The notes beneath the pieces were generated by a model. The model was not told the DNA's origin and did not search any database. It saw only the letters and a list, made by a program, of their open reading frames with translations. Below, in pieces: positions 50,655 to 52,434 of a stretch of 52,434 nt of DNA. The stretch lies in contig JALOAQ010000002.1 in the NCBI GenBank assembly GCA_023228725.1, forward strand, positions 1 to 52,434, in the 5' to 3' direction. The translations under genes were made by a program, and so were the position numbers. The first letter of the stretch is position 1, and the number at the start of each line of letters is the position of its first letter. The DNA is from Bacteroidales bacterium. GTDB taxonomy: Bacteria; Bacteroidota; Bacteroidia; Bacteroidales; ML635J-15.

Positions 50655-50684
50655 AATATAAATAGATTAAATTTTGTTGAAAAG

Positions 50685-50692
50685 CAAACTTA
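50685..50692 (-). promoter_or_regulatory. -7 promoter box TAAGTTTG (minus strand) for ettA
   Basis: The reverse complement of CAAACTTA matches TAnnTTTG, about 30 nt upstream of the ettA ATG. Confidence 0.45.
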
Positions 50693-50819
50693 GTAAAAAA
50701 ATATATTTTAATGCTTGTTTTAATGATTTATTTTAGTTTTTAATATTATTTAAAATTTAGAAAAAAAAATTGATGAAAAGATGAGAATATTGGCATAAAT
50801 CATTTAAAAATATAATACT

Positions 50820-50918
50820 AAAGTCAATTCATTACAAAAATCAACACTTTTTGGTTCAGTTTCATTACAAGAAACGATGCTTTATGGTTCAGTTTCATTA
50901 CAAATGATTATCTTTGTA
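50820..50918 (+). repeat. 33-bp tandem repeat, three units (two share an exact 18-mer GGTTCAGTTTCATTACAA, the third is degenerate)
   Basis: TTCATTACAA occurs at 50828, 50861 and 50894, an exact 33-bp period. The last unit contains a TATCTTTG -7 box (50909-50916) and the hairpin ATTACAAA/TTTGTAAT. Confidence 0.6.
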
Positions 50919-50939
50919 ATCATTAAATAGTCATTTATT

Positions 50940-51053
50940 ATGTTTAGTAGAGAGTTGCTTAAGAATTTAGAACAGTGGTCTGAGAGAAAAGGTAGAAAAC
51001 CTAAATGGAATAGACGAATAATACATAATTTTGCTAAGATACAGGAATTGTAA
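50940..51053 (+). pseudogene. 37-codon remnant resembling the N-terminus of a DUF4143/COG1373-type AAA+ ATPase
   Basis: MFSRELLKNLEQWSERKGRKP matches the usual start (M..R.L...L..W......RKP) of these ATPases. It diverges and stops before the Walker A motif. Confidence 0.35.
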
Positions 51054-51278
51054 ACTATGTTGCAATAGTTAATTTTTTTTCTATTCAATTAGGTATATAC
51101 TACAAATGGAAAAATTTCAACTACAAAATTTTACTTTATATTATGTTTGTGTCTAAGAGAAAGCGTTGAATAAATATGTGTGATTGCTGGAAAAAGCGTG
51201 GTAAGAAGTTTTTTTTATATAAATAATTAAATTATAAAATAAATAAGATAAATGTTTGTTTTATTGTTTTATTTATTT

Positions 51279-51286
51279 TACTTTTG
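51279..51286 (+). promoter_or_regulatory. -7 promoter box TACTTTTG upstream of the cas10-like gene
   Basis: Exact TAnnTTTG match about 130 nt upstream of the ATG at 51418. Confidence 0.35.
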
Positions 51287-51417
51287 GGGATTGCTATAAT
51301 TCAAAATTTTTTTATTTATTATTTTTGGATTAGTAGCAGGAAATGGGGGGGGATTTTAAAATTTTAATTAATGAATGGAGATGATTTATCTAATAAATAA
51401 TAGAAATAAAAGTAAAA

Positions 51418-52434
51418 ATGCTTATGGGAGATAATTTAGAACTATTTTTAAAGTGTGACATTTCGGGTATTCAATCCTTTATTTTTAATGTACCAAGTAA
51501 AGGTGCGGCAAGAGCGCTTAAAAGTCGCTCGATTTATGTTGAAGATATTTCCAAATTTTGTTTAAATGAACTTAATGACTTTTTCAAAGGAGAAGAAATA
51601 GAAGAACTTTACAATGGAGGAGGAAACTTTTATTTGGATATATCAACTCAGAAGAGCAAAAAGGAAATTGAAAATAAAATTGAAAGTATCCAAAATCTTT
51701 ATTTAGAAAGTGATATTTTTCCTTATATATCCTTTGTAGAAAAAAGCAATGAAGAAATAGGTTATTTGCTTAAAGAAATTAATCGAACGGTGCAGAAGAA
51801 AAAAATGCAACGACCAATTAGTTATGATTTAATTGATGCTACACCTATTTCGGTACCTGATTTTAATATTAATGAGATTAAAGGCATTAATGGGCAAGTT
51901 CCTAGAGGTGACTTTAGTTGGATAGCCGAAAATGCAGTTGGTGATAAAAAACTTGCAGCTATTAAACTTGATGTAGATAATCTAGGTTCGCTTTTTATGG
52001 ACTTATCCAAAGCAAATTATCAAAAATTATCAAAAGCTATAAAAGATTTTTTTGATGCTAAGCTTTTAGATTTGATTAGTAAGTTAAAAATGCAAAATAA
52101 TATTTATGTTGTGTTTTCAGGTGGTGATGATTGTTTTATGATTGGAAGTTGGAATCATATTTTTGATTTAGCAATTCAGTTACGTAAGGAATTTTCAACA
52201 TTTCAAGAAAAAGTCAAAAATGAAATTTCATCCCTACCACAGGAACCAGTTACGTTTTCTGCTGGGATTGTAGTTTTCACTCCTCATTATCCCTTATTGC
52301 AAGTGTCTGAAGAGGCTGAAAGCTCTTTATCTAAAAGTAAAATGGTTGAAGGAAAGAATAGTGTAACTATATTTGGGAAAACTCTAAATTGGAATGAATT
52401 TGAAAAAGCACAAAAAGTTAGTAAAACTTTATCC
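51418..52434 (+). CDS. cas10: Cas10-like (Csm1/Cmr2 family) Palm/cyclase protein lacking an HD domain, 3'-partial (runs off the window)
   Basis: Own translation gives MLMGDNLELFLKCDISGIQSFIFNVPSKGAARALKSRSIYVED...YNGGGNFYL...AAIKLDVDNLGSLF...YVVFSGGDDCFMIGSW...FSAGIVVFTPHYPL...GKNSVTIFGKTLNWNEF. This is 339 codons in frame with no stop up to position 52434. Confidence 0.8.
   Translation, partial: MLMGDNLELFLKCDISGIQSFIFNVPSKGAARALKSRSIYVEDISKFCLNELNDFFKGEEIEELYNGGGNFYLDISTQKSKKEIENKIESIQNLYLESDIFPYISFVEKSNEEIGYLLKEINRTVQKKKMQRPISYDLIDATPISVPDFNINEIKGINGQVPRGDFSWIAENAVGDKKLAAIKLDVDNLGSLFMDLSKANYQKLSKAIKDFFDAKLLDLISKLKMQNNIYVVFSGGDDCFMIGSWNHIFDLAIQLRKEFSTFQEKVKNEISSLPQEPVTFSAGIVVFTPHYPLLQVSEEAESSLSKSKMVEGKNSVTIFGKTLNWNEFEKAQKVSKTLS

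Follow-up and report, generated by a model that had tools for sequence, protein, structure and literature searches.

Organisation of the locus

The analysed DNA, referred to here as the window, is a stretch of 52,434 nt that ends within a cas10/csm1 gene. The reading frame comprises 339 codons, contains no stop and is open to the contig end. Both its translation and its profile scores agree with the initial annotation, which had described a Cas10-like gene at the window edge. An in-frame TAA (51394-51396) is found seven codons 5' of the ATG. Translation could equally well begin at the ATG at 51424. The database copy (P0001) has 337 aa, and several homologues align from the residue encoded at 51424. 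The coordinates of the locus, including its continuation on an overlapping metagenome contig (L012), are collected in Table 1.

Table 1 Features of the cas10 locus in the window and on contig L012
Feature	Position	Strand	Basis or remark
Type IIG restriction-modification protein, 945 aa	34496-37333	-	Eco57I/MmeI-type methylase, TaqI_C specificity, HSDR_N
33-bp tandem repeat, 2.3 copies	50828-50904		between ettA start and ATPase remnant
AAA_14/DUF4143 ATPase remnant	50940..51174	+	three colinear tblastn fragments against the 446-aa ATPase of L008
G8 homopolymer, 66 nt 5' of the cas10 ATG	51345..51352	+	likely promoter or leader region
cas10/csm1, 5' part, 339 codons	51418..52434	+	translation; Pfam, NCBIfam and PADLOC matches; L012 overlap
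Palm1, residues ~7-130, with DISGIQSFIF and YNGGGNFY	51436..51807	+	phmmer against PDB; AF2 fold
Short inter-palm linker, residues ~131-175 (~45 aa)	51808..51942	+	low-confidence stretch of the model; no CxxC pairs
Palm2 (cyclase), residues ~176-325	51943..52392	+	Pfam palm2 match; PDB alignment; AF2 model
GGDD cyclase active-site motif, residues 235-238	52120..52131	+	read from sequence
Start of the C-terminal helical D4	52393..52434; remainder on L012:339-611	+	AF2 helices; TIGR02578 alignment
csm2	L012:628-1074
csm3	L012:1061-1690
csm4	L012:1687-2700
csm5	L012:2705-3814
CARF gene start, 78-aa fragment	L012 from 3890		50% identical (E 4e-23) to the N-terminus of the L008 Card1-like CARF protein

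All of the Cas10 motifs that had been listed for the protein are present, in the order claimed: DISGIQSFIF (residues 14-23), ALKSRSIY (33-40), YNGGGNFYL (65-73), LDVDNLGSLF (184-193), VFSGGDDCFMIG (232-243), SAGIVVF..HYPL (281-294) and GKNSVTIFG (312-320). The GGDD motif, contained in VFSGGDDCFMIG, is intact, as had been stated. The 339-aa fragment has three Cys residues and no CxxC pair.

The ten genes upstream comprise housekeeping genes, among them those for an ettA-like ABC-F protein, an OmpA/PD40 protein, mnmG, adenine deaminase and dtd, as well as one restriction-modification gene. The latter encodes a type IIG enzyme and represents a second defence gene, located ~14 kb from the CRISPR operon.

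The protein is a type III-A Csm1

Profile searches place the protein in the Cas10 family. In Pfam, Cas10-Cmr2_palm2 matches residues 178-317 (E 3e-32) and Csm1_B matches residues 25-92 (E 3e-11), and the PADLOC Cas10 models reach E 1e-54. The NCBIfam equivalog for Csm1 of type III-A (TIGR02578, cut-off 170 bits) scores 232.4 bits with the 339-aa fragment and 258.5 bits with the 429-aa protein obtained by joining the fragment to L012; the latter alignment extends to profile position 751 of 753. We also searched the PDB by phmmer, using as query P0002, a full-length relative of 425 aa that is 93% identical to the window protein. The strong matches were Csm1/Cas10 chains only, and the best chain labelled 'GGDEF domain-containing' scored 24 bits compared to 87 bits for Csm1. 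The Cas10 identity proposed in the initial annotation is therefore confirmed by the Csm1 equivalog, both Pfam families and PADLOC.

Several related assignments were considered and rejected. That annotation had suggested a profile comparison of Cas10 with plain GGDEF proteins, in which the Cas10/Csm1 models scored and the GGDEF family (PF00990) gave no match to the window protein at E <=1; a GGDEF diguanylate cyclase is thus ruled out. The mCpol family (PF18182) gives 17 bits (E 0.008) against a gathering cut-off of 26.4 and is likewise dismissed. The palm fold of the cyclase type with its GGD[DE] hairpin, present once in mCpol and GGDEF proteins, also occurs in the window protein, which consists of two palms and a D4 domain. 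The type III-B Cmr2 model (TIGR02577) remains at 42 bits against a cut-off of 79.4. For type III-D, which would be marked by a Csx10-type Cas5, csx19 and more than one kind of cas7 gene, the Csx10 model reaches only 19 bits, on Csm3, against a cut-off of 177, and the Cas5 protein of the operon is a Csm4 match. The earlier suggestion of a III-D/III-B-like subtype does not hold, as all five effector proteins pass their III-A cut-offs and the Cmr2 and Csx10 models stay below theirs.

A compact Cas10 without the HD and zinc-finger domains

The window Cas10 is a compact protein of 429 aa: Palm1 is joined by a short linker to Palm2, which carries the GGDD motif, and a helical D4 domain follows. It lacks both the HD domain and the zinc finger. 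To describe this architecture we used an AlphaFold2 model of P0002, calculated on a 38-sequence family alignment (pLDDT 90.7, pTM 0.87). In the model, Palm1 adopts a beta-alpha-beta-beta-alpha-beta fold (residues 7-129) and D4 is formed by helices over residues 325-424. The linker is the stretch of lowest confidence, with a block pLDDT of 60-71. Pfam, the AlphaFold2 model and Foldseek agree on two palm domains with the GGDD in the second. A Foldseek search of the PDB with the model, the comparison with Cas10 Palm domains that had been called for, returned type III-A Csm1/Cas10 chains as all of the top 50 matches, with query-normalised TM scores of 0.55-0.78.

The missing regions can be located by comparison with solved Csm1 structures, namely those of Enterococcus italicus (9g9a), Staphylococcus epidermidis (7uzw), Streptococcus thermophilus (6ifn/6nud), Lactococcus lactis (6xn3) and Thermococcus onnurineus (6mur/4uw2). 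The order Palm1 - Palm2 (GGDD) - D4 is shared with these proteins. So are the operon partners Csm2-Csm5 and, in the PDB alignment, the D-x-SGIQ-x-FI and Y-x-GGG-x-x-Y motifs of Palm1. The sequence identity is ~17-21%. Residues 8-91 of P0002 align to residues ~253-345 of Csm1, the start varying between ~253 and 269, which is past the HD domain. Residues 165-388 align to ~518-741, with the Palm2 part covering ~518-680. In comparison with the solved proteins of 750-815 aa, the window protein is without the N-terminal ~250 residues (HD) and ~100 residues between the palms, and no ssDNase activity would be expected of it.

The absence of the HD domain is not an artefact of a misplaced start. The 763-bp spacer 5' of cas10 (50655-51417; 21.5% GC) contains stops throughout all six frames. 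With a stop seven codons 5' of the ATG and all upstream frames closed, an HD domain cannot be encoded upstream, and the description of the protein as HD-less stands. The HD domain is missing from 35% of III-A Cas10 in a census of type III loci (PMC11229360), so that its absence is compatible with membership in Csm1.

The zinc-finger/D2 region between the palms is also absent, and the linker of ~45 aa stands in its place. At this site of the family alignment, ~50 additional aa are found in relatives measuring 465-500 aa. With three Cys residues and no CxxC pair, the protein has no Cys-rich zinc-finger insert, and with a full length of 429 aa it is indeed compact. In both respects the initial annotation was correct.

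The operon continues on an overlapping contig

Scanning JGI metagenome contigs with the window protein yielded L012 (Ga0265295_1028430), a contig of 4125 bp whose start is identical to the end of the window (52097-52434 = L012:1-338, 100% identity over 338 bp). On L012, cas10 ends with a stop codon at 609-611, giving a full gene of 429 codons. The genes csm2 (cas11), csm3 (cas7), csm4 (cas5) and csm5 (cas7) follow, and the contig then enters a CARF gene. The four Csm proteins exceed the cut-offs of their type III-A equivalogs in NCBIfam: Csm2 with 51.3 bits (cut-off 30.6), Csm3 with 191.5 (90), Csm4 with 134.1 (55) and Csm5 with 112.2 (38.3). Csm3 retains the Asp of its GLDSP motif, which we take to correspond to the catalytic Asp of characterised Csm3 (D32 in S. 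epidermidis Csm3).

L001, a MAG contig labelled 'uncultured Proteiniphilum sp.', matches L012 with 91.4% identity over 3.8 kb and the window cas10 with 93.4% identity. These similar values support the same lineage for both pieces. The join rests on the 338-bp identical overlap, which leaves a small residual chance that it represents a strain-level chimera. The overlap was left unmerged by the assembler, suggesting a strain-level branch point inside cas10.

The initial annotation had left open whether the gene is the first of a type III operon or an orphan Cas10-derived signalling module. The former applies: csm2-csm5 and a CARF gene lie directly 3' on L012, and the operon is common to all relatives examined. 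A stand-alone cyclase of the mCpol or GGDEF kind, acting in nucleotide signalling without a crRNA-guided complex, would be in line with the lack of any other cas gene or array in the window, with the small size and missing HD domain of the protein and with its weak mCpol match. Against it stand the presence of csm2-csm5 on L012 and in every relative, the passed Csm1 equivalog, the mCpol score below its cut-off and the silent PF00990 model, and we consider a stand-alone cyclase extremely improbable.

Conservation of the compact Csm1 and its operon

A protein search identified 316 homologues of the window Cas10. The closest ~75 (P0002-P0075) are Bacteroidales proteins of 420-440 aa, several of which are already labelled Csm1 or Cas10 in their source. 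Identity to the window protein is 93% for P0002 and 59-72% for P0003-P0035. In a scan of the genome collection, the 93% relative was the only match. The members of this compact clade have the same length, motifs and operon as the window Cas10.

In the family alignment of 38 members, G235 and G236 are invariant and D237 and D238 are conserved in >=90%. The GGDD is present in 246 of the 248 retrieved relatives of at least 400 aa, and paired CxxC motifs are missing in 239 of them. One protein, P0051, carries GGGN in place of GGDD (alignment A2, columns ~355-360) and looks like a cyclase-inactivated variant in a family that otherwise conserves the motif.

We examined the neighbourhoods of relatives whose Cas10 shares 93%, 72%, 68%, 61% and 60% identity with the window protein. 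The order cas6b-cas10-csm2-csm3-csm4-csm5 was observed in all of them, and the gene order of the window operon recurs in L001-L006 and L008-L011. In the longer loci, one or two Card1/Can2-like CARF proteins and MJ1673-domain proteins are encoded after the operon, and several loci carry cas1/cas2 or RT-cas1/cas2. The locus with the 72%-identical Cas10 (L002) has a second cas6 downstream near cas1 and ends in a CRISPR array with 36-nt repeats at a spacing of 68 bp. According to the initial annotation, finding a standard, complete type III operon and an array further downstream would have meant an ordinary CRISPR locus. The operon is found at the locus itself, while an array is seen only in L002. 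The description of an ordinary type III-A CRISPR-Cas operon thus largely applies.

The accessory genes near compact Cas10 vary (L002:9673-11940; L006:18248-19666; L008:18874-19983; L010:18356-19372). They include an RT-Cas1 fusion, PIF1-type helicases and a BT4734-like_N protein between cas1 and cas2. The MJ1673-domain proteins of related loci adjoin the Card1-like CARF nucleases.

Comparison with L001 gives a dN/dS of 0.11 for cas10 and of 0.13-0.17 for csm2-csm5, and none of the genes contains an internal stop. These values indicate that the operon is maintained by purifying selection.

The 5' border of the operon

The largest difference from the compact Csm1 clade is found upstream. In 7 of 7 related loci cas6b lies directly 5' of cas10, and the first 76 bases of L001 encode the C-terminus of Cas6b. 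In the window cas6b is missing, and cas10 is instead flanked by a decayed ATPase and the housekeeping ettA-like gene. A tblastn search of 50655-51417 with two Cas6b proteins detected no remnant of the gene. When this region was compared with L001:1-83 and L002:1059-1775, DNA homology to L001 ended ~20 nt ahead of the cas10 start codon, a break that implies deletion or rearrangement of DNA at the operon's 5' border. With cas6b absent upstream, crRNA processing would need a Cas6 encoded elsewhere.

No CRISPR array was detected in the 52-kb window by Tandem Repeats Finder, by a direct-repeat search or by a search for the L002 repeat with <=3 mismatches. Used as tblastn queries against the window, 30 proteins of the L001, L002 and L006 loci, Cas proteins among them, matched cas10 and no other gene. 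The initial annotation's remarks on the upstream region, namely the lack of an array or cas gene, a decayed ATPase stub and a 33-bp tandem repeat, hold within this window.

The ATPase fragments correspond to aa 1-21 (50940-51002), aa 302-310 (51038-51064) and aa 422-442 (51112-51174), with an internal stop. They are the remains of a heavily deleted pseudogene that stands outside the CRISPR system. An intact homologue is located inside the csm operon of L008 (14685-16025).

Within the 33-bp repeat, the 18-nt core GGTTCAGTTTCATTACAA recurs exactly at 50853 and 50886. The repeat has no Rfam match, no stable fold and no copies in the related loci, and its reading as an RNA or a CRISPR remnant was rejected. 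It may constitute a pair of operator sites. The G8 tract is the only run of G or C of >=7 in the 52-kb window (27.7% GC) and could be either an assembly hot spot or a site of slipped-strand phase variation. A sigma-70 scan of the spacer gave 12 hits, little above the 7.4 +/- 2.5 in shuffled sequence, with a model that is unsuited to Bacteroidota promoters, and was disregarded.

It could be argued that the locus is a decaying remnant, which has lost cas6b and perhaps the array and the adaptation genes as well, in a genome undergoing reduction, and that it no longer provides immunity. The missing cas6b, a direct neighbour of cas10 in every relative, the 93%-identical one among them, points in this direction, as do the end of L001 homology just before the ATG, the shattered ATPase pseudogene, the low GC content of the window and the lack of an array within 52 kb upstream. 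However, arrays normally lie downstream, which here would be past the end of L012 (~4 kb 3'), and relatives such as L002 possess the second, downstream cas6. The cas10 and csm2-csm5 genes are intact with a dN/dS of 0.11-0.17, the GGDD and the Csm3 Asp are kept, and a CARF effector gene is present 3' of csm5. Decay of the system is for these reasons unlikely.

Discussion

We conclude, with a probability of roughly 0.88, that the gene heads a cas10-csm2-csm3-csm4-csm5 operon with a Card1/Can2-like CARF gene, and that its compact, HD-less Cas10 would signal via cyclic oligoadenylate (cOA). The signalling part of this reading draws on knowledge of the families involved. The Csm complex with its crRNA would bind complementary invader RNA, which would be cut by Csm3. 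Target binding would switch on the Palm domains of Cas10, and these would use ATP to synthesise cOA, most probably cA4, which in turn may activate the neighbouring CARF nuclease of the Card1/Can2 type. Both Card1 (Rostøl et al. 2021) and Can2 (Zhu et al. 2021) reportedly respond to cA4. As the HD domain is absent, the complex would be without an ssDNase of its own, and immunity would consist of RNA cleavage and cOA signalling. The earlier proposal of cyclic-oligoadenylate signalling rather than DNA cleavage is retained as the predicted role of the protein, given the intact GGDD and the missing HD domain.

HD-less Cas10 proteins that keep the cyclase are known from other subtypes. Cmr2 of Thermus thermophilus (the Cas10 of TtCmr) is without an HD domain (PMC8376896). 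This Cmr2 and most III-D Cas10 resemble the window Cas10 in lacking HD while keeping the cyclase, and are thought to act through cOA immunity. The partners of the window Cas10 are Csm proteins (III-A), not Cmr (III-B) or Csx10/Csx19 (III-D).

Of the Cas10 proteins in the census, which covered 1113 type III loci, 39% had a recognisable HD domain; the share was 65% within III-A, and a cyclase was present in 92% (PMC11229360). Among type III systems, Cas10 most commonly keeps the cyclase and has no HD domain, and the initial annotation overstated the rarity of this form. The census applied a minimum Cas10 length of 500 aa, meant to keep 'only functional Cas10 proteins' (PMC11229360). Since its members are shorter than this, the compact clade was not counted.

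Small size itself is also a matter of degree. An exhaustive phmmer search over 1.84 billion representatives returned 213 clusters at E <=1e-30. Among the 248 retrieved relatives of at least 400 aa, 70 measure 400-449 aa, 59 measure 450-519 aa and 96 measure 520-649 aa. Over the whole range of 400-649 aa, the N-terminal HD motif is missing in 225 of 225 proteins and paired CxxC in 224 of 225. The compact Cas10 is the short end of a length continuum. A literature search for Cas10 below 450 aa, covering sources other than subscription journals, found general statements on HD-less proteins and the 500-aa filter only. As a tentative idea that we would rate somewhat below even odds, the 420-440 aa Csm1 clade of Bacteroidales could represent the smallest Cas10 able to assemble a full Csm complex while remaining cyclase-competent.

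Beyond its correct annotation, the individual locus matters little. Since complete Csm operons that are maintained by selection do contain Cas10 proteins of less than 500 aa, length filters in surveys discard real systems. If active, the compact clade would define the minimal Cas10 core for target-RNA-gated cOA synthesis and would offer a smaller chassis for type III diagnostics. For the family as a whole, it marks a lower bound on the size of Cas10.
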